From a bacterium (GTDB lineage: Bacteria > Myxococcota_A > UBA9160 > UBA6930), in the NCBI GenBank assembly GCA_024226235.1, contig JAAELW010000238.1, forward strand, positions 3,046 through 67,045: a stretch of DNA of 64,000 nt, read 5' to 3'. Made by a program: the position numbers and the translations under genes. The number at the start of each line of letters is the position of its first letter. Within the stretch, counting starts at the first letter, position 1. Below, in pieces: positions 13,381-50,583 of the stretch. The notes under the pieces are model-generated. The model saw nothing but the letters and a program-made list of their open reading frames with translations, made no database searches and was not told the DNA's origin.

Positions 13381-14076
13381 ATGGCAGACGACGGGACCCG
13401 GAACATGATCGAGGGCATGCTCGCCCAGCTCGAAAAGGAGAAGATGGCGGGCCTCTCGATCGACGATCTCCGAGATGCGATGATGGCGCCCGGTGCAGCC
13501 GAGTCCGTGGCGGAGCTGATGCCGATCGAAGCGGCGTCGGTGCAGCAGGGTGAACCGGCGCCGGATTTCGATCTGGCGTGGCTTCCAGGCAGTGGTCCCG
13601 AAGGAGAAACGCTTCGGCTCTCCTCCCATTTCGGCGACCGACCGGTGGCACTCGTATTCGGCAGTTACACCTGACCGCCTTTCCGGGCCCAGGCTGGGTC
13701 CATCAACCGCATCTACCGCCGCTTCAGGGATCAAGTCGCCTTCTACGTCGTCTACATCAAGGAGATCCATCCGACCGACGGCTGGCAGGTGAAGGAGAAC
13801 GAGCAGGACGCGGTGCTCTTTACACAACATCAGTCGATGGAAGAGCGCGTAGAAGTTGGCGAGGCCTGCATGTTGAAGCTCGCGCTGGAGCCTCCGGCTG
13901 TGGTCGATGAAATGGACGATGCCGTTGCGCGGAACTATGCGGCCGTGCCGGAGCGGCTCTACCTGATCGGCGCCGACGGTCGTGTGGCCTACAAGGGCGG
14001 CATGGGTCCGATGTTCTTCCGGCCCGATGAGTGGGAGGCCGCGATCGAGAGCCACATCGAGAGCACTGGCAAGTAG
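13381..14076 (+). CDS. Deiodinase-like thioredoxin-fold selenoprotein (in-frame UGA = Sec at 13672-13674), soluble form
   Basis: ORFs 13381-13674 and 13789-14076 share one frame, and TGA is the only stop between them. The joined protein reads ...RPVALVFGSYT-U-PPFRAQAGSINRIYRRFRDQVAFYVVYIKEIHPTDGWQ...RLYLIGADGRVAYKGGMGPMFF..., collinear with the iodothyronine deiodinase core. GAGGAG RBS lies before the ATG. Confidence 0.85.
13672..13674 (+). other. Predicted selenocysteine (UGA) recoding site
   Basis: TGA sits between GSYT and PPF, at the position of the catalytic Sec in deiodinases. Confidence 0.8.
13685..13701 (+). promoter_or_regulatory. Candidate bacterial SECIS-like hairpin
   Basis: GGGCCC-AGGCU-GGGUCC forms a 6-bp stem (one G:U pair) with a 5-nt loop containing GG. 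It starts 11 nt after the UGA. Confidence 0.4.
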
Positions 14077-14083
14077 CCCGCTC

Positions 14084-15127
14084 CTATAGCTGCGAAAGGT
14101 AGGCCTCCATCACGGGCTCGAGGTGGTCGGGGTTGAAGCCGAACGGGCCGATTCCCGGGTTGTAGATCACGCGGCCTTCCAGATCGATGAAGTAGATTCG
14201 AGTGGGCCGTGCCGTGTAGAGCGTGGCCACGCGGTTGTCCATCGCATCGACGTAGAGCGGGACGACGCCCTCGAACAGGTTGGCCTGGCAGCTTGCGGCC
14301 ACCCGTTGCCGCTGGGCCAGAGTCACCGGTTCCTTGATGTCGGTACGCGCGCGCTGGCCCGTGAGATCGTTCACGAGCCGCTGGGTACGTGAGCGGCCGA
14401 GCCACCAGCGATCGGTGGGATGGGCTTCCTTGATGTAGACGACGATGAACTCGACCCGATCGTGATACCGCTCGTAGAGGTCTTTGAGACGCACGGTCCC
14501 ATTGCTGAAGGGCGGTCACGTGTAACTGCCAAAGACCAGCGCAACGGGGAGCCTGCCCCGGAAGTCAGAGAGCCGGACCTGGGCGTTTCCCTCCGGGTCT
14601 AGGAGTTCGAAATCCGGTGCCAGATCGCCGGCCTTGGGAGATTTCACATCCTGGGCGAGCTGCCACGTGATCTCTTCATTGCGCCACTCGGCGGCCTGAA
14701 CCAGCAGATCCGTTCCGAGCGTCAGATTGTCCTCGCCCTCCCAGACCATGAAGAAGGACACCACCGCCGCGATCGCGACCGCACCCCCTCGGACGAAGCG
14801 ACCCGGGGAGCGCCGGTTTTCGGAGAGCCCACGTGCGACGTGGAGGAGCAACGCGAATGCTCCAAGCCCGGCCACCAGCGAGACCATCATCGGGGCACCC
14901 CACATCAGGGGCGCCAGCAGGAGAAGGCCCAGCAGCAACCGCAACGCACCGGCTCGGTGGTGCAAGAACAAGCCATGCGCACCGCTGGCAAGCAGGTAGC
15001 AGGAGAGGGCCGCGTGGAAGAAGGCGATCGCTGCGTGGAGGCCATAGACGAGCACGGTCCACAGCAGGTTGGTGGTGTCGACGACGGTTTCATAGCTGGG
15101 GTCCATCGGAGCCTCCACGCCGGGCAT
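14084..15127 (-). CDS. Membrane-anchored deiodinase-like thioredoxin-fold selenoprotein (in-frame UGA = Sec at 14516-14518)
   Basis: ORFs 14516-15127 and 14084-14494 share one frame with no other stop. The N-terminus has about four hydrophobic helices. It continues ...DLAPDFELLDPEGNAQVRLSDFRGRLPVALVFGSYT-U-PPFSNGTVRLKDLYERYHDRVEFIVVYIKEAHPTDRW...IYFIDLEGRVIYNPGIGPFGF. Confidence 0.85.
14485..14501 (-). promoter_or_regulatory. Candidate bacterial SECIS-like hairpin
   Basis: Minus-strand UGGGAC-CGUGC-GUCUCA forms a 6-bp stem (one G:U pair) with a 5-nt loop. It starts 15 nt after the UGA. Confidence 0.35.
14516..14518 (-). other. Predicted selenocysteine (UGA) recoding site
   Basis: Plus-strand tca is TGA on the minus strand, in the same GSYT-U-PPF context as the paralog. 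Confidence 0.8.
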
Positions 15128-15224: not shown

Positions 15225-15902
15225 ATGCTTCGAGTGAGGACCCATACGCCCCGGATCGACGATCTCCGGTGGGCAAAGCCGGCCCATCAAGCCCGCAGCC
15301 AGCGCACCCTCGAGCTCCTGCTCGACGCGGCTGAGGCCGAGATCCGTGAGAAGGGCTACGCAGATGCGTCGGTCGCGGAGATCGCGCGTCGCGCGGGGTG
15401 CTCGGTCGGGACCGTCTACCGGCGGTTTCGCGACAAGACCGCGCTGCTCCACGCCCTCGACGAACGCTGGGGGGCGGCGTTCCGTGCCACGATGGAGGAT
15501 GCGGTCGCGCCCGAGCGCTGGCAGGGCGCTCCCATTCTCGAAGTGTTGACCGGCTACATCGCGTTCACACTCAACGAGGGTCACGAGCGTGCCGCACTGC
15601 AGCGCGCCGCGATCACGATGGCCTCGCGTGACGCCAGCTTTGCGGAGCGGCAGATGAAGCTCGCTTCCGAGCTTCATGCGGGACTGCGCGCACTACTCAC
15701 CGCGCGGATCGACGAGATCGGCCACGCCGATCCTCCGCTTGCGATCGAATTCGCACTCGAGCAGTTGAGAGCCATGCTGATGCTTCGTCTGGCTACGCTT
15801 CCGCTCGAAGCGACACTGTTTGGCAATAGTGATGAGCAGTTCATCGATCAGGCCTTGACCAGTATCGCGGCCTATCTGAAGCTCGAACCGCTATCCGCAT
15901 AG
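15225..15902 (+). CDS. TetR/AcrR family transcriptional regulator
   Basis: HTH region: TLELLLDAAEAEIREKGYADASVAEIARRAGCSVGTVYRRFRDKTALLHAL. The gene ends 21 nt before the molybdoenzyme alpha gene. Confidence 0.9.
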   Translation: MLRVRTHTPRIDDLRWAKPAHQARSQRTLELLLDAAEAEIREKGYADASVAEIARRAGCSVGTVYRRFRDKTALLHALDERWGAAFRATMEDAVAPERWQGAPILEVLTGYIAFTLNEGHERAALQRAAITMASRDASFAERQMKLASELHAGLRALLTARIDEIGHADPPLAIEFALEQLRAMLMLRLATLPLEATLFGNSDEQFIDQALTSIAAYLKLEPLSA

Positions 15903-15923: not shown

Positions 15924-18902
15924 ATGGAAGAACGGAGCACACCGAAGGCCACTGCCGAGGCTACTGGCGGCAAGGCTCCCGCCGCGGGGCTGAGCCGTCG
16001 CCGCTTCCTTCACCTCAGTGGGCTCGGTGTGGCATCGCTGCCGCTGCTCCACTTCGAGAGTACGCCCGCGCGTGCGGCCGCCACGGCGAAACCCAAGCTC
16101 CTGAGCTGGGAGGATCTCTACCGGGAGCGCTGGACCTGGGATCGCGTGGCGAAGGGCTCCCACGGCTGGCTGAACTGCCGCAGCGCGTGCAACTGGGACC
16201 TCTACGTAAAAGATGGGATCGTCGTCCGAGAGGAGCAGGCGGCGAACTACGAGGCTTCGGAGCCCGGGGTACCCGATTTCAATCCTCGTGGTTGTCAGAA
16301 GGGCGCCTGCTACACGGAGGTGATGTATGGCCCGAGCCGACTGACGGTTCCGCTCAAGCGGGCCGGCGAGCGGGGAGAGGGCAAGTGGAAGCAGATCGGC
16401 TGGGACCAGGCCCTCCGCGAAATCGCCGAGAAGCTGATCGACATCTGCCAGCGGTATGGCGGCGAAGCGCTCGTCCAGGATCTGGGCCCCCACTTCGATC
16501 TCGGTGCAACCAATGCGGCTCGCAACCGATTCTTCGGCATGTTGGGTGCGTCTCTCCCCGATGACTGGGCGGAGATCGGGGACCTGAACATTGGCGCGAC
16601 GCTCTCGCTCGGAATCCCGCACATCGGAGGCTCTTCCGACGAGTGGTTCCTCTCGGACTTCCTGGTGGTCTGGATGATGAACCCCTCCGTCACCCAGATG
16701 TCCGATGCCCATTTCCTCTACGAGGCGAAGTACAACGGCGCGGAGCTGGCGGTGATCGACCCCGTCTACAGCGCCACCGCGATGCACGCGGATCAATGGG
16801 TCCCGATCCGGCCCGGCAGTGACGCAGCGCTCGGGCTGGCCACCGCGCGCCACATCTGGGAGAGCGGGCGGATCGATCTCGACTACGTCCGGGAGCAGAC
16901 CGACCTTCCCATCCTGGTCCGCCTGGATACCGGACGCTTCCTCCGCGAGTCGGATCTTCGCACGGGAGGGGCGGACGACCTGCTCTACCTCTGGGACTCC
17001 AAGCAGGACGCGCTCGTCCCTGCACCGGGCTCCCAGGGCAACGACGAGCGCGTAAAGCTCTTCCTGGAGGGACTCGAGCCCGTGATCGAGGGGCGCTTCG
17101 AGGTGGACCTCGCCGACGGCACCCGCATCGGGGTAGCGCCCGTGGGCTCACTACTGCGCGAGCACCTCGATCCATGGACCTTCGAGCGCGCGGCTGCGGT
17201 CACCGGCCTGGACGCTGCGGTGGTCGAGCAATTCGCCGAGGGCTTCGCGGCAGCCGAGCGGCCGATGGTGCTCTCGAGCTGGGGATCGAATCGCTACCTC
17301 CACTCAGACCTGATCAATCGGACCAAGCTGCTCTGCCTCTCGCTGAAGGGAGCGATCGGCAAGAAGGGCGCCGGCTACCACTCCACTGGCTGGGTCGGCA
17401 TCGATGGATTTGGCCAGGTTGCCCAGGACGCCGGAGAGGGTTTCATCGGAACGCTTCGCGGAATGGCGAAAGTGTTCGGAAGCGCCAAGGTGATCGGCAT
17501 GCTGGTGGACCAGATCGCCGGCAAGAAGTCCGAGGCGCAAGTCCAACACGAGCTGACGCGTCACCTGACCACCGGTGAGGATTCGTGCCTGACCAACTCG
17601 GCCAGCCAGAACTACAAATTCCAGGGCCTGGCCGACGATCTCGCGCGTGAGCAGGACCACCTGTATCCGCAACCGCTGGCTGCCTACGTGGCGGAATCCG
17701 AGGCCAAGGGCTGGATGCCCACGCATCCCGCGAAGGGCACCCGACCGCGCTGTTGGGTGACCGGGGGCAGCAACGTGCTGCGACGCACGAACCTGCCCCA
17801 GCGCATGCTCGAAACACTCTGGCCAGGGCTCGAACTCGTGATCGACGTGAACCAGAAGCACACCTTCACGGGGCTCCACGCCGACTACCTCCTGCCTGCT
17901 GCCGGCTACTACGAGAAGCCGGGCATCAAATACTCGGTGGCCTACGTCCCCTACCTGCACTACTGCGACCGGGCGGTGAAGCCGGTCGGTGAGGCGAAGG
18001 ACGAGTGGGAGCTCTACTCGCTGCTGGCCCGGGAGATCCAGCGGATTGCCCAGGAGCGCAACCTCGAGCCGACCCAGGGCTGTGGCACCCAGACGGTCGA
18101 GCTCAAGACGTTTGCCGACCGTTTCTCGTTTGCCGGAGAGTACGGGCCCGAGGATGTGGAGGCGGTCAACCAGTTGATCCTCGAGAAGAGCCCCTCGGCA
18201 GAAGGAATGACCGTCGAGAGCCTCAAAAAGACCGGTATCGCCAAATATCGGAGCGTCGGAGGGATGGGGATCCAGGAGAACCTCTTCAATTCGGATTGGA
18301 AGGGAGAGGGAATGATGCGTGCGCTCACGGACATGAGTGAGCAGCGCTGGCGCTGGCCGACATTGACCGGAAGGCAGCAGTGCTACATCGACCATCCGTG
18401 GTTCATCGGGGCCGGTGAAAGCCTGCCCGATCACAAGGAGAGCCCGAAGGCCGGCGGTGACCATCCGTTCCAGTTCGTTTCGTGCCACTCTCGCTGGAGC
18501 GTCCACAGCGTGTGGCGCGACACCACGATGCTGCTGCGCCTGCAACGTGGAGAGCCGGTCGTGTATCTGAACCCGGCCGAGGCTCAAAGGCTCGGAGTCG
18601 AAGACGGTGCCTGGGCCGAGATCAGCAACGACTACGGCAGCATCCTGATGCGCGCCAAGCACTCCGCCATGGTGCGTCCGACTGTGGCGTACTACTTCCA
18701 TGCCTGGGAGCCGCATCAGTTCCCGGAGCACAAGAGCTACAAGTGGTTGATTCCGGGTTTGATGAACCCACTGCATTTTGCGGGCGGAGAGGGACACCTC
18801 GGCTGGTTCTTCGGTCAGTACACGCCGGGCACCCACGTGCAGGACACGCGCGTTGCCATTGCACCCTCGAATGGCCCGCAGCGGCAGGGAGAACAGAGTT
18901 GA
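15924..18902 (+). CDS. Type II DMSO-reductase-family molybdoenzyme, catalytic alpha subunit (NarG/EbdA-like), Tat-exported
   Basis: Twin-arginine signal LSRRRFLHLSGLG. FS0 motif SHGWLNCRSACNWDLYVKDG...NPRGCQKGAC. NarG-like ...TQMSDAHF segment carrying the expected Mo-ligand Asp. Confidence 0.9.
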   Translation: MEERSTPKATAEATGGKAPAAGLSRRRFLHLSGLGVASLPLLHFESTPARAAATAKPKLLSWEDLYRERWTWDRVAKGSHGWLNCRSACNWDLYVKDGIVVREEQAANYEASEPGVPDFNPRGCQKGACYTEVMYGPSRLTVPLKRAGERGEGKWKQIGWDQALREIAEKLIDICQRYGGEALVQDLGPHFDLGATNAARNRFFGMLGASLPDDWAEIGDLNIGATLSLGIPHIGGSSDEWFLSDFLVVWMMNPSVTQMSDAHFLYEAKYNGAELAVIDPVYSATAMHADQWVPIRPGSDAALGLATARHIWESGRIDLDYVREQTDLPILVRLDTGRFLRESDLRTGGADDLLYLWDSKQDALVPAPGSQGNDERVKLFLEGLEPVIEGRFEVDLADGTRIGVAPVGSLLREHLDPWTFERAAAVTGLDAAVVEQFAEGFAAAERPMVLSSWGSNRYLHSDLINRTKLLCLSLKGAIGKKGAGYHSTGWVGIDGFGQVAQDAGEGFIGTLRGMAKVFGSAKVIGMLVDQIAGKKSEAQVQHELTRHLTTGEDSCLTNSASQNYKFQGLADDLAREQDHLYPQPLAAYVAESEAKGWMPTHPAKGTRPRCWVTGGSNVLRRTNLPQRMLETLWPGLELVIDVNQKHTFTGLHADYLLPAAGYYEKPGIKYSVAYVPYLHYCDRAVKPVGEAKDEWELYSLLAREIQRIAQERNLEPTQGCGTQTVELKTFADRFSFAGEYGPEDVEAVNQLILEKSPSAEGMTVESLKKTGIAKYRSVGGMGIQENLFNSDWKGEGMMRALTDMSEQRWRWPTLTGRQQCYIDHPWFIGAGESLPDHKESPKAGGDHPFQFVSCHSRWSVHSVWRDTTMLLRLQRGEPVVYLNPAEAQRLGVEDGAWAEISNDYGSILMRAKHSAMVRPTVAYYFHAWEPHQFPEHKSYKWLIPGLMNPLHFAGGEGHLGWFFGQYTPGTHVQDTRVAIAPSNGPQRQGEQS

Positions 18903-20495: not shown

Positions 20496-21020
20496 ATGGA
20501 AGCGCGGCTCGAAGCAGCGCTGCCCTTCGTCGCGTGGTCACGCGTCTGGAGCCCGCTCGCACCCGAAGCGTGGCGCCAGGAGGCGTGGACAGCGCTCTCG
20601 CTGCCGGGAAGTTTCGCAGATCTGGAGAGCGCCTTCCTCGATGCCTTCGTCATCGGGCTCGGTGGACCCGATGTCCCGCTGCTGCTCCACGCAGCGCTTG
20701 GCCGCGACGGCGGTACCGTGCGGGAGGATTGGATGCGGGTCATCCAGCACCTCGAGCTTCAATGGAAGGAGCAGGCGCTTCCGCCCGACCATCTCGGTGT
20801 GGCTTGCGACGTGGTGGCCCGTGCCATCGAGCGCGACGAGCCTCTGCTGATTCGCGAGCTCCGCAGGCGCTACCTGGATCCGTGGTGCGCGGTCGCATCC
20901 GAACGGCTTGTAGAAAAGGACGCCGGTCTGGCGGCGCTCCCCGAGGTCTTTGCCTCTGACCTGGCAGTCCTCGCACAAGCCGAGGCTGAGGCCGATCCGC
21001 CGTTCGGTGGCGTCTCATGA
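20496..21020 (+). CDS. TorD/NarJ/DmsD-family molybdoenzyme maturation chaperone (delta subunit)
   Basis: About 175 aa and helical: FADLESAFLDAFVIGLGGPDVPLLLHAALG...LPPDHLGVACDVVA...LRRRYLDPW. It sits immediately after the gamma gene. Confidence 0.7.
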   Translation: MEARLEAALPFVAWSRVWSPLAPEAWRQEAWTALSLPGSFADLESAFLDAFVIGLGGPDVPLLLHAALGRDGGTVREDWMRVIQHLELQWKEQALPPDHLGVACDVVARAIERDEPLLIRELRRRYLDPWCAVASERLVEKDAGLAALPEVFASDLAVLAQAEAEADPPFGGVS

Positions 21021-21054
21021 TAGGCTCGCCGTACCCGAATTGGAGCCCACGATC

Positions 21055-21432
21055 TTGAATACACCGATCCGTATCCTGGTTGCATTGCCCGGCGTCGTGA
21101 TGTTGATGAACGCATTGGGTTGGCTGATCCGCCCTGGACCCACGGCCGAAAGCCTCGCGATGCCGCTTCTGGAGGGGATGGCGCGCAGCACCCAGATTGG
21201 CGATCTGGGTGCGTTCTTCGCTGTGACCGGCATCGTGATCCTGCTCGGTGCCTGGCTACAGCAGCGCAGCTGGCTCTATTGCGGTGCGATGCTGCTTGGT
21301 GGTGCCGCGGCCTTTCGCACCCTCGCGTGGGCCTTCCACGATGCGGAGCTCGCAACCACATTCATCGCATCGGAGATCGTGATGACGGCGATCGTGCTAT
21401 TCGGCGCGTCGAGAGCCAATACGGAGGTATGA
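21055..21432 (+). CDS. Small 4-TM membrane protein (unknown function)
   Basis: Four hydrophobic segments (IRILVALPGVVMLMNALGWLI, LGAFFAVTGIVILLGAW, LYCGAMLLGGAAAF, IASEIVMTAIVLFG). The start is uncertain; I chose TTG 21055. Confidence 0.55.
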   Translation: MNTPIRILVALPGVVMLMNALGWLIRPGPTAESLAMPLLEGMARSTQIGDLGAFFAVTGIVILLGAWLQQRSWLYCGAMLLGGAAAFRTLAWAFHDAELATTFIASEIVMTAIVLFGASRANTEV

Positions 21433-21522
21433 TCCGCACGACACCACCCTCGCGAGTTCCCGCCGAGTGACTCGCACTGGGCCTTTGCATGTGCCAGCAT
21501 GGAACACGTTGGAGGTGCACGG

Positions 21523-22521
21523 ATGACGGATGTCCATCGGATCTGGGGGGCGGAAATATCCCCCTACTCAGTGAAGGTTCGCTCGTACTTTCGTTACAAA
21601 GCCATTCCCCACGAGTGGATCGTGCGCGGACCGGCCGAGATGGAAGAGTTCCAGAAGTACGCGAAGCTTCCGCTGATTCCCGCCGTGGCCACGCCTGAAG
21701 GCGAGGGGATGCAGGATTCGACTCCGATCCTGGAGACGATCGAGGCGCGCAACCCGGAACCTTCGATCCACCTTGGCGATCCGGTTTCGAATTTCGTCTC
21801 TGCACTGCTCGAGGAGTTCGGCGATGAATGGGGCAACAAGTGGATGTTCCATTTCCGGTGGGCCCGCGAGGCCGATCAGGACAGTACGGCTGCACGCCTT
21901 GCCGCCACGATGGCGCCAGGCGTCACGGGTGAGCCACTGCAGGGGATCATCGACGGTATCAAGGATCGGATGGTGAACCGGGTCTGGTTCGTTGGCTCGA
22001 ATGAACAGACGGCGCCGCAGATCGAACAATCCTTCAAGGACGCCCTTGTGCTGATCGAGGCCCATCTCGAAGGGCGTCACTACTTGTTTGGCGGCCGCCC
22101 CGCGTTCGGGGATTTCGGAATCTGGGGTCAGATCTACAATGCCTGGACCGATCCGACCTGCAAACAGATCATCGAGGCCGGGCACCCGAACGTATTGGCG
22201 TGGGTCCGGCGCATGCTGGATCCGAAGAGCGAGGGCGAGTTCGAGCCATGGTCTGCGCTCGAGCCGACCCTGCTGCCGTTGTTGAAGACCCAGGTCGGAG
22301 GGCTCTTCCTGCCCTGGTCGGAGGCGAATCGGAAGGCCCTGGAAGCCGGCGACGAGGAATTCACGGTCGAGTTGGCTTCCGGCCGGTGGACCCAGAAGCC
22401 CCAGAAGTACCACGCGCGGTCGCTGGCGAAGCTCCGGGAGCGCCTTGCGGCAGTTGCCGACAGGGCTGACCTCGATCCCGTGCTCGAGAGTGCGGGCTGC
22501 CTGCGCTGGCTCCAGGCCTAG
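21523..22521 (+). CDS. Glutathione S-transferase-like protein (long form, about 330 aa)
   Basis: GST N-terminal thioredoxin-like domain: IWGAEISPYSVKVRSYFRYKAIPHEWI...LPLIPAVATPEGEGMQDSTPILETIE. GST_C-like helices: YLFGGRPAFGDFGIWGQI. GGAGGT lies before ATG 21523. Confidence 0.8.
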   Translation: MTDVHRIWGAEISPYSVKVRSYFRYKAIPHEWIVRGPAEMEEFQKYAKLPLIPAVATPEGEGMQDSTPILETIEARNPEPSIHLGDPVSNFVSALLEEFGDEWGNKWMFHFRWAREADQDSTAARLAATMAPGVTGEPLQGIIDGIKDRMVNRVWFVGSNEQTAPQIEQSFKDALVLIEAHLEGRHYLFGGRPAFGDFGIWGQIYNAWTDPTCKQIIEAGHPNVLAWVRRMLDPKSEGEFEPWSALEPTLLPLLKTQVGGLFLPWSEANRKALEAGDEEFTVELASGRWTQKPQKYHARSLAKLRERLAAVADRADLDPVLESAGCLRWLQA

Positions 22522-30266: not shown

Positions 30267-30357
30267 GCCGAGTTCCTGGGTGGTTCTTCTCCAGCGGAGT
30301 CCCCGAACCACCGAACACGCCCTAGACTGATGGATACGGATCGAAGGGGAGATCGTT

Positions 30358-30795
30358 TTGCCCTGGTGGGGATGGATGACACTCGGCGCCGCATTGCTGG
30401 CGGCCGAGCTTGGCGTGAGTGCCGACTTCTGGCTCGCAGTCGTCGGCGCGGCTGCGTTGGGTACATCCCTACTCGGGCTGTTCGGGTTCGATGCACCGAT
30501 CTGGACGCAGTGGTTGGTCTTTGCGGGGTTGGCCGTCTTCATGGCGGTGTTCGTCCGCGGGCCCGCATACGAGCGACTGATGGCCGGGACCGTCGACCTG
30601 GCGCCCGAGCTGCTGGGCGAAAGTGCACGGGTCGTGGGGTCGGCCATCGCGCCGGGTCAGGTGGGCAAGGTCGAGCTTCGTGGATCCACCTGGCGCGCAC
30701 GCAATGAAGGAACTGCAGCCCTTGAAGAGGGCGCCATCGCCCATGTCGATGGTGTCGATGGAGTCATGCTGCGAGTCCAGGCCAAAACGGCCTGA
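30358..30795 (+). CDS. NfeD family membrane protein
   Basis: Three N-terminal TM helices followed by an OB-fold-like C-terminus: GESARVVGSAIAPGQVGKVELRGSTWRARNEG...VMLRV. It lies upstream of an SPFH gene. Confidence 0.85.
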   Translation: MPWWGWMTLGAALLAAELGVSADFWLAVVGAAALGTSLLGLFGFDAPIWTQWLVFAGLAVFMAVFVRGPAYERLMAGTVDLAPELLGESARVVGSAIAPGQVGKVELRGSTWRARNEGTAALEEGAIAHVDGVDGVMLRVQAKTA

Positions 30796-30816
30796 CCCGC
30801 TGAAGGAGGATCGATC

Positions 30817-31770
30817 GTGGAGACGCTCATCGGTGTTGGGGTGATCGCGGCACTCGTCATCTTCGTGCTGGCGAAGACGGCGGTCGTCGTCCCCCAACAG
30901 AATGCGTTCGTCATCGAGCGGCTCGGCAAGTACTCCGACACGCTACATGCCGGCTTCCACATCTTGATGCCCTTCGTCGACCGGATCGCCTACAAGCACT
31001 CTCTCAAGGAGCGGGCGATCGATATCCAGGAGCAGGTCTGCATCACCCGGGACAACGTCCAGGTGGGTGTGGATGGTGTGCTGTATCTCCAGGTGCTGGA
31101 TGCCCGCCGCGCCTCCTACGGCATTGGCAACTACATCTTTGCGATCTCACAGCTGGCCCAGACCACACTGCGCAGCGAGGTAGGCAAGATCGATCTCGAC
31201 CGGACGTTCGAGGAACGGGCGCAGATGAATGCGTCTGTCGTCTCGGAACTCGACATGGCCTCGGACCCCTGGGGTGTGAAGGTGATGCGCTACGAGATCA
31301 AGAACATCAATCCGCCCCATGATGTACTGACCGCGATGGAGAAGCAGATGCGCGCTGAGCGCGAGAAGCGGGCCGTCATCCTGGAATCGGAGGGCCATCG
31401 CGATGCAGCCATCAACCAGGCCGAGGGCGACAAGCAGAAGGTGATCAAGGAATCCGAGGCTGCTCGTATGAGGCAGATCAACGAGGCGGAGGGGGAAGCG
31501 GAGGCGATCGAGGCCGTCGCTCGCGCCACTGCCGAGGGCCTGCGGCAGGTGGCCGGTGCACTGAGCTCACCCGGCGGCGGAGAGGCGATGCAGCTCCGAG
31601 TGGCGGAGCAGTACGTTCGCGAATTCGGAAACCTCGCGAAGGAGGGAAACACCTTCGTCGTGCCGTCCAACCTGAGCGATATCGCTTCGATGATCGCGTT
31701 GGCCACGGGCTTCAACAAGGGTACCGACGGAGCGCCCGGCCGTGCGGGCAGCGCGGGCGGCGGCAGCTAG
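30817..31770 (+). CDS. SPFH/Band 7 (stomatin/paraslipin-like) protein
   Basis: N-terminal TM, then VPQQNAFVIERLGKYSDTLHAGFHILMPFVDRI...RAIDIQEQVCITRDNVQVGVDGVLYLQV and a coiled-coil tail. Confidence 0.92.
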   Translation: METLIGVGVIAALVIFVLAKTAVVVPQQNAFVIERLGKYSDTLHAGFHILMPFVDRIAYKHSLKERAIDIQEQVCITRDNVQVGVDGVLYLQVLDARRASYGIGNYIFAISQLAQTTLRSEVGKIDLDRTFEERAQMNASVVSELDMASDPWGVKVMRYEIKNINPPHDVLTAMEKQMRAEREKRAVILESEGHRDAAINQAEGDKQKVIKESEAARMRQINEAEGEAEAIEAVARATAEGLRQVAGALSSPGGGEAMQLRVAEQYVREFGNLAKEGNTFVVPSNLSDIASMIALATGFNKGTDGAPGRAGSAGGGS

Positions 31771-48318: not shown

Positions 48319-48387
48319 GACTGGGGCTGTTCGCCGTGTCCGTAGTATAGTCGCAGGGCCGCCTTCATCCCGAAGAGAGGAGCCCCG

Positions 48388-50583
48388 ATGAACTCCAGGA
48401 CCGCCGGCGATTGGCATTCGACCTCCTGCGTCCTTTGCTCGCTCAACTGTGGCCTGTCGGTCCAGGTGAGTGACAACCGGATCATGAAGGTGAAGGGCGA
48501 CAAGTCGAACCCATTCAGTCGGGGCTACACCTGCAGCAAGGGGCTGACTGTCGGAAAGTACGCTCATCACGAGCAGCGCGTGCGCGAGCCGATGAAACGC
48601 ATGCCGGATGGGACTCACCAGGAAATCACCTGGGAGCAGGCCACGACCGAGATCGCCGAGAAACTGAATCAGATCATTGCCCGATCCGGCGGCCATTCGG
48701 TGGGGTTGGTGGGCGGCGGTGGGCAGGCCAACCACATGGACTTCGTCTATGCAGCGGGCCTGCTCCAGATGATCGGCTCGCATTGGCACTTCAATGCACT
48801 CGCCCAGGAGTTCACCCAGAAGTATTGGATCAACGGCCACGTCTTCGGGAGCGAGGCGATCGACTTCGAGGCCAACGCCCACGAGTCCGAGCTGCTGCTG
48901 GTGATGGGCTCGAACCCTTGGTTGAGCCATGGCATCCAACGCGCGCGCGTCGTGTTGAAGGAGATCGCCAAGGATCCCTCGCGCTCACTGGTGGTCGTCG
49001 ATCCGCGCCGCACCGAGACCGCGAAGATGGCAGATACGCATCTTCGGATCCGGCCCGGTACGGATCTCTTCCTGCTGCTGGCGATGCTGAACGTGATCGT
49101 TCACGAAGGGCTGGTGGACGAGGCCTTCGTCGCAGAACACGCCCACGGTTGGGACGACGCGCGGTTCATCGCCGACCTCGTGACGCCCGCCCGGGCGGCA
49201 GAGCTCTGCGATCTGGACGAGCAGGGGATCATCGCGCTCGCCCGCCGCTTTGCCAACGCGAAGAGCGCCAGCATCAAGTTCGACCTCGGCATCTACCACA
49301 ACCGATACATGGTCGAGAACTGCTTCCTGCTGCCCCTGCTCCAGATCGTGACCGGGAACATGTGTACACCTGAGGGCGCCCACTTCGCCGCAACCATGTT
49401 CAGTGGCGCCAGCCTGTTTTCAGGGGATCGCGAGAAGCCGCGAACACGGGTGGCAGGCATCCCGATGGTCCGAGGCCTCTTTCCCCCCAACGCACTGCCC
49501 GAGGAGATCCTCGAGGCCGGCGAGGGGCAGATCCGTGCGCTCTTCGTGGAAGGTTGCAACCCGTTGCGCTCCTATGCCGACACCCGGGCCATGACCCGCG
49601 CGTTCGAAGACCTGGAGCTATTGGTGGTGATCGATCCCGCGATGACCGAGGCTGCGATGCTGGCGCACTACGTGCTGCCCGCTCCGGTTGGCTATGAGAA
49701 ATGGGAGGCCTCGGTGTTTCCGAAGGGGCACCCCGAAATCTACATGCACCTGCGCGCCCCGGTTCTGCAAGGCCCACCCGAGGCGAAGCAGGAGTGCTCG
49801 ATCTTCTACGAGATCGCCAAGGCGATGGGGCTCGACCTCTCTTCCCATCCATTGTTCGCGATGCTGGAGCAAGCGATCGAGGCCGGTGAGACAGCCCCAG
49901 TGCTCTCCTTCATGAAGCTGGTGTGCGGGGTCTTTGCGGCCCAGAATCACGACCGCCTGATCGAGGCCGGGACGCTGAGCGCAGGGGACGACCCTGCACA
50001 GGCGCTCTTCGAGAAGCTGCTCGAGAACCCGCAAGGTCTGCTGCTATGTCGTTCGGATCCGAAGGACAATTGGAGCCAGGTCCGAACCCCGGACCAGATG
50101 GCGGTGCTTGGTGTTCCCGAGGTGCTGGCATTGTTCCGGGAGCTGGAGATTCCCGATGACACCGACTTCCGAAAGAACACGGAGTTCCCGTTCATGCTGC
50201 AGACCGGAGAGCGCACGGACTCGAACGCGAACACCATCCACCGGGATCCCAGCTGGCGGAAGGCCCTCAAGACCAGCTATCTGCGAATGAACGGAACGGA
50301 TGCCGAGGGCCTGCTCATCGAGGACGGGGAGCGCGTCAGGGTTGTCACGGAGGCCGGGGAGGCGACGGTACCCGCCATGCTGACCGACGACATCTATCCC
50401 GGGAACCTCAGCATGCCTCACGGCTACGGCCTGCTGGCCCGCGACCCCGAGACGGGCAAGATGGAGCCCGTCGGAGTGAACGTCCAGGAGTTGATTCGCG
50501 CCAGCCACCGGGACCCACTCAGCGGGATTCCCTACCACAAAGCCATTCCCGCAAGGGTGGAGAAGGTCGAGGCCAGCCACTAG
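48388..50583 (+). CDS. Molybdopterin-dependent oxidoreductase (MopB superfamily, cytoplasmic, Fdh/Nas/BisC-like)
   Basis: N-terminal 4Fe-4S motif SCVLCSLNCGLSV...KGDKSNPFSRGYTCSKG. C-terminal molybdopterin dinucleotide-binding domain VRVVTEAGEATVPAMLTDDIYPGNLSMPHGYG. No Tat signal. Confidence 0.85.
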   Translation: MNSRTAGDWHSTSCVLCSLNCGLSVQVSDNRIMKVKGDKSNPFSRGYTCSKGLTVGKYAHHEQRVREPMKRMPDGTHQEITWEQATTEIAEKLNQIIARSGGHSVGLVGGGGQANHMDFVYAAGLLQMIGSHWHFNALAQEFTQKYWINGHVFGSEAIDFEANAHESELLLVMGSNPWLSHGIQRARVVLKEIAKDPSRSLVVVDPRRTETAKMADTHLRIRPGTDLFLLLAMLNVIVHEGLVDEAFVAEHAHGWDDARFIADLVTPARAAELCDLDEQGIIALARRFANAKSASIKFDLGIYHNRYMVENCFLLPLLQIVTGNMCTPEGAHFAATMFSGASLFSGDREKPRTRVAGIPMVRGLFPPNALPEEILEAGEGQIRALFVEGCNPLRSYADTRAMTRAFEDLELLVVIDPAMTEAAMLAHYVLPAPVGYEKWEASVFPKGHPEIYMHLRAPVLQGPPEAKQECSIFYEIAKAMGLDLSSHPLFAMLEQAIEAGETAPVLSFMKLVCGVFAAQNHDRLIEAGTLSAGDDPAQALFEKLLENPQGLLLCRSDPKDNWSQVRTPDQMAVLGVPEVLALFRELEIPDDTDFRKNTEFPFMLQTGERTDSNANTIHRDPSWRKALKTSYLRMNGTDAEGLLIEDGERVRVVTEAGEATVPAMLTDDIYPGNLSMPHGYGLLARDPETGKMEPVGVNVQELIRASHRDPLSGIPYHKAIPARVEKVEASH

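Follow-up and report, generated by a model that had tools for sequence, protein, structure and literature searches.

Can two open reading frames (ORFs) that are annotated as separate hypothetical proteins be the halves of a single selenoprotein gene? The question is raised by the minus strand of contig JAAELW010000238.1, from a bacterium of the Myxococcota_A, of which a 64,000-nucleotide (nt) stretch, hereafter the window, was analyzed. ORFs 14516-15127 and 14084-14494 lie there in one frame, and the TGA at 14516-14518 is the sole stop between them, as an earlier note on this DNA had claimed and the reading frame bears out. We denote the joined frame gene B and consider it highly probable that it encodes one 340-residue, membrane-anchored selenoprotein of the deiodinase family, with hairpin-directed insertion of selenocysteine (Sec), a probable periplasmic location and a substrate that presumably is not an iodothyronine.

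Reading frame and start codon of gene B

The translation of the joined frame, ...LPVALVFGSYT-*-PPFSNGTVRLKDLYERYHDRVEFIVVYIKEAHPTDRWW...GIGPFGFNPDHLEPVMEAYLSQL (the asterisk stands for TGA; the C-terminal end is GIGPFGF), matches the product given in the earlier note. By the GC content at third codon positions, which is 0.79 in the upstream half and 0.83 in the downstream half (overall window GC, 0.64), both halves look coding. The possibility that the N-terminal region is non-coding, which the earlier note had named as a refutation, did not materialize: this region came out as both coding and conserved.

The start codon, in contrast, has to be moved. The ATG at 15125-15127, where the earlier note began the protein, is seven codons too early, and the true start is most likely the ATG at 15104-15106, 21 nt downstream, from which the protein begins MDPSYETV. 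An MDP[SGNTD] N-terminus is found in 93 of 115 truncated homologues (MDPS in 52, MDPG in 23, MDPN in 10, and others); the GenBank entry for the N-terminal half (P0001) uses the same ATG; and a Shine-Dalgarno-like GGAGG can be read from the sequence at 15112-15116, 5 nt before it. With this start, the complete gene occupies 14084-15106 of the minus strand, 340 codons followed by a TAG stop (14084-14086), and the recoded codon, predicted to specify Sec, falls at position 197. GenBank splits this gene into GY723_11990 (N-terminal half) and GY723_11985 (C-terminal half), both named 'hypothetical protein'. Some C-terminal fragments carry the name 'type I thyroxine 5'-deiodinase' in JGI annotations.

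Conservation of the in-frame TGA

A database search with the joined protein returned 146 matches, and the homologue counts given here are from the best 120 clusters. Proteins of approximately 200-216 residues make up 115 of these, and all 115 terminate precisely at ...FGS[YF]T, that is, at the residue before the TGA of gene B; the same 120 include P0002 (353 residues), a continuous cysteine form with the sequence GSFT-C-PPFSNG. For the C-terminal half of gene B, there is a separate set of more than 100 clusters, 136-142 residues in length and 70-99% identical, whose start is the first GTG or ATG that follows the TGA. As judged from these alignments, to find the same column interrupted in over 100 independent clusters of sequences is far beyond chance.

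In a genome collection at the species level, the full architecture of gene B is present at nine loci. Eight of them (L001-L008), from seven metagenome-assembled genomes (MAGs) of Myxococcota or 'Deltaproteobacteria' and one Desulforhopalus MAG, have TGA as the catalytic codon, and the conserved C-terminal half continues after the TGA in all eight. The ninth, from a Flavobacteriaceae MAG (L009), has TGC at this position, as does the locus of P0002 (L161). Eight further full-length cysteine forms with the same membrane domain (GANS-C-PPFSEGT) were identified by an exhaustive HMMER search. Altogether, the recoded column is occupied by cysteine in P0002 and P0121-P0133, and of the fetched family loci (n = 108), 102 have TGA as the catalytic codon and 6 have TGC or TGT. 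The TGA is kept in orthologues that are only 40-65% identical as well as in the more than 100 clusters, and gene B contains no frameshift and no stop other than TGA 14516-14518. In the AlphaFold2 model of P0002, the fold is continuous across the recoded junction.

Reassignment of the genetic code does not account for these observations, as TGA serves as the normal stop codon of 10 of the 19 window genes that are identified with confidence. Taken as a comparison of sequences, the evidence indicates that TGA 14516-14518 is almost certainly a Sec codon. The reading of the earlier note, Sec decoding and not decay, is thus sustained by the Sec/Cys column, which the homologues do keep, by the conserved TGA, by the coding conservation downstream of it and by the covarying hairpin described below. 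GenBank and metagenome catalogues wrongly list gene B as two hypothetical proteins, and since more than 100 relatives are truncated in the same manner, a widespread selenoprotein goes unrecognized by standard gene calling and naming.

A predicted SECIS hairpin after the TGA

Comparative analysis alone led to a predicted bacterial Sec insertion sequence (SECIS), a mini-hairpin with the sequence GGGAC-CGUGC-GUCUC at 14486-14500 of the minus strand. This 15-nt element, with a stem of 5 base pairs (bp) and a 5-nt, GU-containing loop, begins 15 nt after the UGA and overlaps the codons for G203-T-V-R-L207. In 18 Sec loci, these codons (GGG ACC GTG CGT CTC, Gly203-Leu207) are invariant at synonymous positions, whereas the neighbouring codons for Gly, Ser, Tyr, Thr and Pro are free to vary. 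GGG accounts for 20% of the Gly codons in the window and CGT for 11% of the Arg codons, and the frequency of the hairpin codon combination expected from local codon usage is about 0.002.

Covariation points in the same direction. In an alignment of 56 sequences, 97.9% of the cells are paired, compared with 30-59% when the 3' arm is slid by 1-3 nt, and compensatory, both-side changes are seen in three of the five pairs. The double changes in the stem are G-C to A-U, A-U to G-C and C-G to U-A, the first of these exemplified by the Desulforhopalus hairpin GGAAC...GUUUC. The soluble subfamilies UPPFV and UPPYV, mostly from Chloroflexota, have the same hairpin in the same register as gene B, in variants such as GGGGC...GCCUC, GAGGC...GCCUC and GGGAU...AUCUC. 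Among the cysteine forms, the Flavobacteriaceae orthologue reads GGA ACT GTT CGT ATT, with a weaker stem, and the closest one, P0002 (7085-8146 of its locus, TGC), retains GGGGC-CGUGC-GUCUC. The check that the earlier note had proposed, a search for a SECIS on the minus strand after the UGA, accordingly yielded a covarying hairpin. In size, distance from the UGA and the GU of the loop, the hairpin resembles the minimal fdhF SECIS of Escherichia coli. Short and well supported, it would make a useful test case for SECIS predictors.

A deiodinase-family catalytic domain

Residues 153-340 of gene B (14087-14650, minus strand) form a deiodinase-family, thioredoxin-fold catalytic domain, the key features of which are S194-Y-T-U197-P-P-F, Y224, E227-A-H229-P-T-D-R-W234, C273 and R303. 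The Pfam profile PF00837 (T4_deiodinase) matches residues 152-336 with 89.4 bits (cutoff 27; E = 2.9e-25), covering profile positions 68-236 of 237. When the catalytic domain was compared with all Protein Data Bank (PDB) sequences using phmmer, the only matches were mouse Dio3 (7.6e-19) and Dio2 (3.7e-13). The structure of P0002, a cysteine orthologue 59% identical to gene B, was modelled with AlphaFold2, as was the N-terminal half of gene B itself. The P0002 model (predicted local distance difference test score (pLDDT) 89, predicted template modelling score 0.83) retrieved Dio3 (4TR3) as the best Foldseek match (E = 5.5e-10, 30% identity, TM-score of 0.78 on the target) and Dio2 (9H48) with E = 2.7e-08, followed by ResA, DsbE and peroxiredoxins at 1e-6 or weaker. 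The label 'deiodinase-like' of the earlier note therefore stands: Dio3 and Dio2 are the only PDB sequence matches and the best fold matches.

The phmmer alignment, combined with the residue numbering of PMC7506546, allowed us to map the active site. S194, T196, U197, P198 and P199 of gene B correspond to Ser167, Thr169, Sec170, Pro171 and Pro172 of Dio3, and Y224, E227, H229, W234 and R303 to Tyr197, Glu200, His202, Trp207 and Arg260; E227, H229 and W234 do not vary among 10 full-length members of the family. C273 aligns with Cys239 of Dio3; the Sec-type orthologues and gene A, a paralogue next to gene B, retain it, although not all cysteine forms do. Other positions have diverged: Cys168 of Dio3 is replaced by Tyr, Arg275, the thyroid-hormone clamp, is replaced by Ile, and His219 has no counterpart. 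By this alignment, gene B keeps the catalytic network of the deiodinases and not the hormone-binding residues. Because Arg275 is replaced and His219 is missing, reductive deiodination of iodothyronines by gene B is not expected.

The membrane domain and its probable orientation

The part of the protein that precedes the catalytic domain consists of a four-helix, hydrophobic membrane domain (residues 11-123; 14738-15076, minus strand) and an acidic, amphipathic linker helix (residues 127-152; 14651-14728, minus strand), which is preceded by a WE[GR]EDNL motif and ends with an invariant W148-Q149. The AlphaFold2 model of the N-terminal half places the four helices at residues 11-47, 51-69, 73-92 and 103-123 with pLDDT of 94-98, hydropathy agrees, and more than 100 clusters show conservation of the four hydrophobic helices; the multi-pass anchor of about four helices envisaged in the earlier note was thus recovered. 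Conserved positions in this region include Y5, H24, G42, G60, P66, S76 and R106, in addition to the two motifs.

The membrane domain resembles nothing that we could retrieve. Residues 1-152 have no Pfam match at E<=10, and the best PDB fold match to the membrane domain, a designed protein, has an E-value of 0.035, that is, no fold match was found. An origin from DoxX was considered and rejected, given that hhalign against the alignment of the neighbouring DoxX_2 proteins gave a probability of 0.15% and no Pfam hit was obtained; DoxX/MauE, DsbB and VKOR were likewise rejected for lack of a Pfam hit, of a Cys pair and of a PDB fold match. The alignments of the membrane domain contain no conserved Cys pair, and its sole conserved His is replaced in two cysteine forms; because of this, neither a thiol relay of the DsbB or VKOR type nor a bis-His haem site appears likely in the membrane domain.

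The orientation of the domain was assessed from charge counts averaged over 23 homologues. The N-tail carries 0.17 Lys+Arg and 3.0 Asp+Glu, the loop between helices 1 and 2 carries 4.3 and 1.7, the turn between helices 2 and 3 carries 0.04 and 0.09, the loop between helices 3 and 4 carries 4.0 and 2.0, and the segment after helix 4 carries 2.7 and 8.2. Under the positive-inside rule, this distribution implies an N-out, C-out topology, with the catalytic domain on the periplasmic side, and we conclude that the catalytic domain probably faces the periplasm. The ranking of periplasmic ResA and DsbE as the next-best fold matches after the deiodinases fits this placement. In the wider family, a single N-terminal hydrophobic segment is present in 25 of 81 cysteine forms, which suggests that an extracytoplasmic location is common. 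The likeness to the membrane tether of animal deiodinases that the earlier note had drawn holds as far as tethering goes and is an analogy only, since the domain is unrelated to any known family and the enzyme is probably periplasmic.

A rival reading accepts the selenoprotein and inverts it: with an N-in, C-in topology, the catalytic domain would be cytoplasmic, the helices would serve only as an anchor or dimerization module, and cytoplasmic thioredoxin or glutathione would be the reductant. This arrangement has its attractions. In animal Dio1 and Dio2, the catalytic domain is on the cytosolic side of the membrane, a cytoplasmic reductant would settle the question of where the electrons come from, the membrane domain has neither a conserved Cys pair nor a bis-His site for electron transfer, and gene A, which lacks a signal peptide, is presumably cytoplasmic. 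The charges argue otherwise, because the loops that would then be periplasmic are the two that are rich in Lys and Arg (4.3 and 4.0), the N-tail has almost none (0.17), and the segment after helix 4 is strongly acidic (8.2 Asp+Glu). The signal-peptide-like N-termini of many relatives and the periplasmic location of ResA and DsbE also speak against a cytoplasmic domain, which we consider unlikely, although it should be kept in mind.

A tentative mechanism

Under the preferred, periplasmic reading, a four-helix membrane bundle would be joined via the conserved amphipathic helix to a thioredoxin-fold, Dio-family domain with the active site FGSYT-U-PPF. UGA 14516-14518 would be decoded as Sec under the direction of hairpin 14486-14500, which, following the standard bacterial mechanism, would recruit SelB with Sec-tRNA(Sec). 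If the positive-inside rule holds, the catalytic domain would be on the periplasmic face of the inner membrane. There, by analogy with Dio3 and peroxiredoxins, the selenolate could attack an electrophilic atom of a hydrophobic or membrane-associated substrate, possibly the halogen of a halophenolic compound or the oxygen of a peroxide, and the resulting Se-X or Se-OH intermediate might be resolved by Cys273 or by an external reductant. The TetR gene linked to gene B and the DoxX_2 genes linked to relatives (see below) would suggest ligand-induced expression and a membrane redox partner, respectively. The substrate presumably is not an iodothyronine, because the active-site network of Dio is kept and the clamp for the carboxylate of thyroid hormone is not.

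A more specific version of this scheme, which we regard as a long shot, is that gene B is a periplasm-facing, selenium-dependent reductive dehalogenase or peroxidase that in Myxococcota of marine sediments acts on lipid-soluble oxidants or on halogenated, hydrophobic phenolics, with the four-helix domain and DoxX_2 coupling the selenolate cycle to the quinol pool. If this were the case, gene B would represent a route of organohalide reduction that needs no corrinoid, as well as a bacterial prototype for membrane-bound deiodinases. Several functional handles are at hand, namely, the membrane location, the probable periplasmic orientation, the linked TetR, which implies a small-molecule inducer, and the DoxX_2 partner; furthermore, the natural cysteine orthologues can be expressed without the Sec machinery.

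One gene, two genes or a pseudogene

The annotation in GenBank amounts to an alternative in which there are two separate genes, one for a 196-residue membrane protein that ends at a true TGA stop and the other for an independent 136-residue protein that starts at GTG 14494. This is how gene callers and GenBank (GY723_11990 and GY723_11985) see the locus, TGA is a normal stop in this genome, and no Sec machinery is seen in the 64-kb window. The products, however, would be odd: the first would end in the middle of the thioredoxin fold, one residue before the catalytic position, and the second would lack beta1 and the active site. The eight codons between the TGA and the GTG (PPFSNGT) are conserved, the cysteine orthologues are continuous, with a single confident fold across the junction (pLDDT 89), and the hairpin covaries, all of which makes the existence of two genes very improbable. 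Even less credible is a decaying pseudogene, a former cysteine-type gene with a nonsense mutation: although TGC or TGT becomes TGA by one base change and internally deleted relatives (P0100 and P0032) show that family members do decay, over 100 clusters, and orthologues that share only 40-65% identity, carry the same TGA, the frame is otherwise free of stops and frameshifts, the region downstream of the TGA has a strong coding signal and 70-99% conservation, and the adjacent gene A has the same feature with a different SECIS.

Against the selenoprotein reading that we favour, several observations have to be weighed. Neither selA, selB, selD nor a tRNA-Sec (nor any tRNA) was found in the 64-kb window, and the 161 fetched loci likewise yielded no tRNA-Sec; because the window contains no Sec machinery, the Sec-decoding capacity of the organism is deduced only from its two predicted selenoprotein genes. 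The stem of the hairpin is short (5 bp), no Rfam model matches it, either at the gathering threshold or at E<=10, and RNAfold applied to the single sequence after the UGA does not single it out (z = +1.4). The conservation of the hairpin could stem, in part, from the conserved G-T-V-R-L peptide. Furthermore, the hairpin is present in L161 together with TGC and hence is not strictly tied to TGA; this combination suggests a recent Sec-to-Cys replacement, which would explain it. The periplasmic topology is derived from charge counts, and the substrate and the electron source in the proposed cycle are putative. Finally, gene B in the window has no adjacent DoxX_2, only the divergent TetR, and its other neighbours are not conserved, as judged by tblastn with the neighbouring genes of the window.

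Relationship to known systems

Deiodinase-like selenoproteins with a bacterial SECIS and cysteine homologues were described from the Sargasso Sea by Zhang, Fomenko & Gladyshev 2005 (PMC1088965), with the function stated as unknown and probably redox; reviews from 2022 and 2026 still list them without a function and give the motif as UxxC (PMC9312934, PMC13188914). Gene B shares with this family the PF00837 domain, Sec or Cys at the same position, a SECIS that immediately follows the UGA and has a G in its apical loop, the provenance, mostly from uncultured marine and sediment bacteria, and the presumed redox function. It differs in having the four-helix membrane domain and the linker helix before the fold, and unlike the published UxxC motif, gene B and every relative inspected have U-P-P-F, with no Cys at +3. 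No membrane form is mentioned in these three papers, and a full-text search for 'deiodinase-like' with 'transmembrane' retrieved no bacterial paper. Thus, the enzyme family is known in bacteria, and we found no previous description of its polytopic, membrane-bound form in the literature searched.

The animal enzymes Dio1-3 (4TR3, 9H48) share with gene B the nearly identical FGS-x-T-U-P-P-F, the Y...E-A-H-P-x-D-x-W loop, the Cys aligned with Cys239 and an N-terminal membrane tether. Their anchor, however, is single-pass, whereas that of gene B consists of four helices and a linker helix of unrelated sequence; their SECIS is of the eukaryotic type and lies in the 3' untranslated region, in contrast to the mini-hairpin in the coding region of gene B; and the predicted location of gene B is periplasmic. 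With a near-identical Dio active site and without the hormone-binding residues, the gene B subfamily would be a useful outgroup for inferring the ancestral chemistry.

Within NCBIfam, the C-terminal half of the 347-position profile NF038285 ('deiodinase_rel') matches the catalytic domain (E = 1.3e-47). Membership in this family was rejected, as the score of 163 bits is below the cutoff of 250 and only profile positions 174-338 are matched; the N-terminal ~170 positions remain unmatched in gene B and in nine full-length relatives, indicating that the family has a different architecture. The thioredoxin-fold proteins ResA, CcmG/DsbE and TlpA are, as predicted for gene B, tethered outside the cytoplasmic membrane, and gene B gives a weak NCBIfam ResA hit. 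These proteins, however, are anchored by one helix, carry a CxxC motif and receive their electrons via DsbD or CcdA, whereas gene B has a single Sec without a CxxC partner, four helices and a Dio-specific insertion. A four-to-five-helix module beside a periplasmic thioredoxin-fold domain is shared with VKOR-Trx fusions, DsbB and DoxX/MauE, and DoxX_2 adjoins orthologues of gene B, but the membrane domain of gene B has no Cys pair, no similarity to DoxX_2 and no match in Pfam or PDB.

Gene A, the wider family and the genomic neighbourhood

Gene A (13381-14076, plus strand) encodes a soluble deiodinase-like paralogue of the UPPFRAQ subfamily (PF00837, 9e-33), with an in-frame UGA at 13675-13677. 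Genes A and B are convergent, with 7 nt between their stop codons, and the TGA of gene A follows PVALVFGSYT, identical to the sequence in gene B, in agreement with the earlier claim of two paralogues that share the catalytic site. The independence of the two genes, also claimed there, is borne out as well: over 201 residues their identity is 37%, each falls in a subfamily of its own, and their predicted SECIS hairpins differ, that of gene A being GGGCCCA-GGC-UGGGUCC at 13688-13704 (plus strand). Among 33 sequences of the gene A subfamily, 23-30 retain the inner pairs of the hairpin (GCCCA-GGU-UGGGC), complete flips of the stem from GCCCA..UGGGC to CGGGA..UCCCG occur, and 28 have GGU or GGC as the loop. 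Gene A adjoins gene B only in this window.

Divergently from gene B, 118 bp from its start, lies a gene for a TetR-family regulator (15225-15902, plus strand; PF00440, 7.5e-16), a candidate regulator of gene B. In five related loci, the order TetR, DoxX_2 and the gene itself on one strand is conserved; the corresponding coordinates are 4846-5961 in L001, 4658-5859 in L002, 4735-5983 in L003, 1139-2321 in L082 and 5837-7068 in L161. When the flanking ORFs were clustered, only TetR and DoxX_2 recurred, in these 5 loci. An operator-like inverted repeat, a promoter and a terminator were sought around gene B, and none was found.

Two other TGA-joined ORF pairs in the window, both on the plus strand, were considered as selenoprotein candidates and rejected. 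The pair 20914-21432 and 21433-22521 consists of ordinary adjacent genes for a small membrane protein and a GST-like protein, and the pair 30331-30795 and 30796-31770 of ordinary adjacent NfeD-like and SPFH (Band 7) genes. The window also encodes molybdopterin oxidoreductases at 15924-18902 and 48346-50583 (plus strand), the first with a twin-arginine signal (SRRRFLHL); neither gene contains an in-frame TGA, so these are not Sec-type, formate-dehydrogenase-like enzymes.

The family with the membrane architecture of gene B comes mainly from uncultured Myxococcota. The broader GS[YF]T-U-PPF family (L010-L160) is very widespread in its TGA form and is represented, among others, in Chloroflexota, Planctomycetota, Acidobacteriota, Gaiellales, Latescibacterota and Poribacteria. 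Two members, P0100 (6001-6687 of L162, a 708-kb contig) and P0032, have independent in-frame internal deletions (approximately residues 131-243), by which the linker and the first half of the catalytic domain, with its Sec, are lost, and both resume at the same ...SGNPARLD... point.

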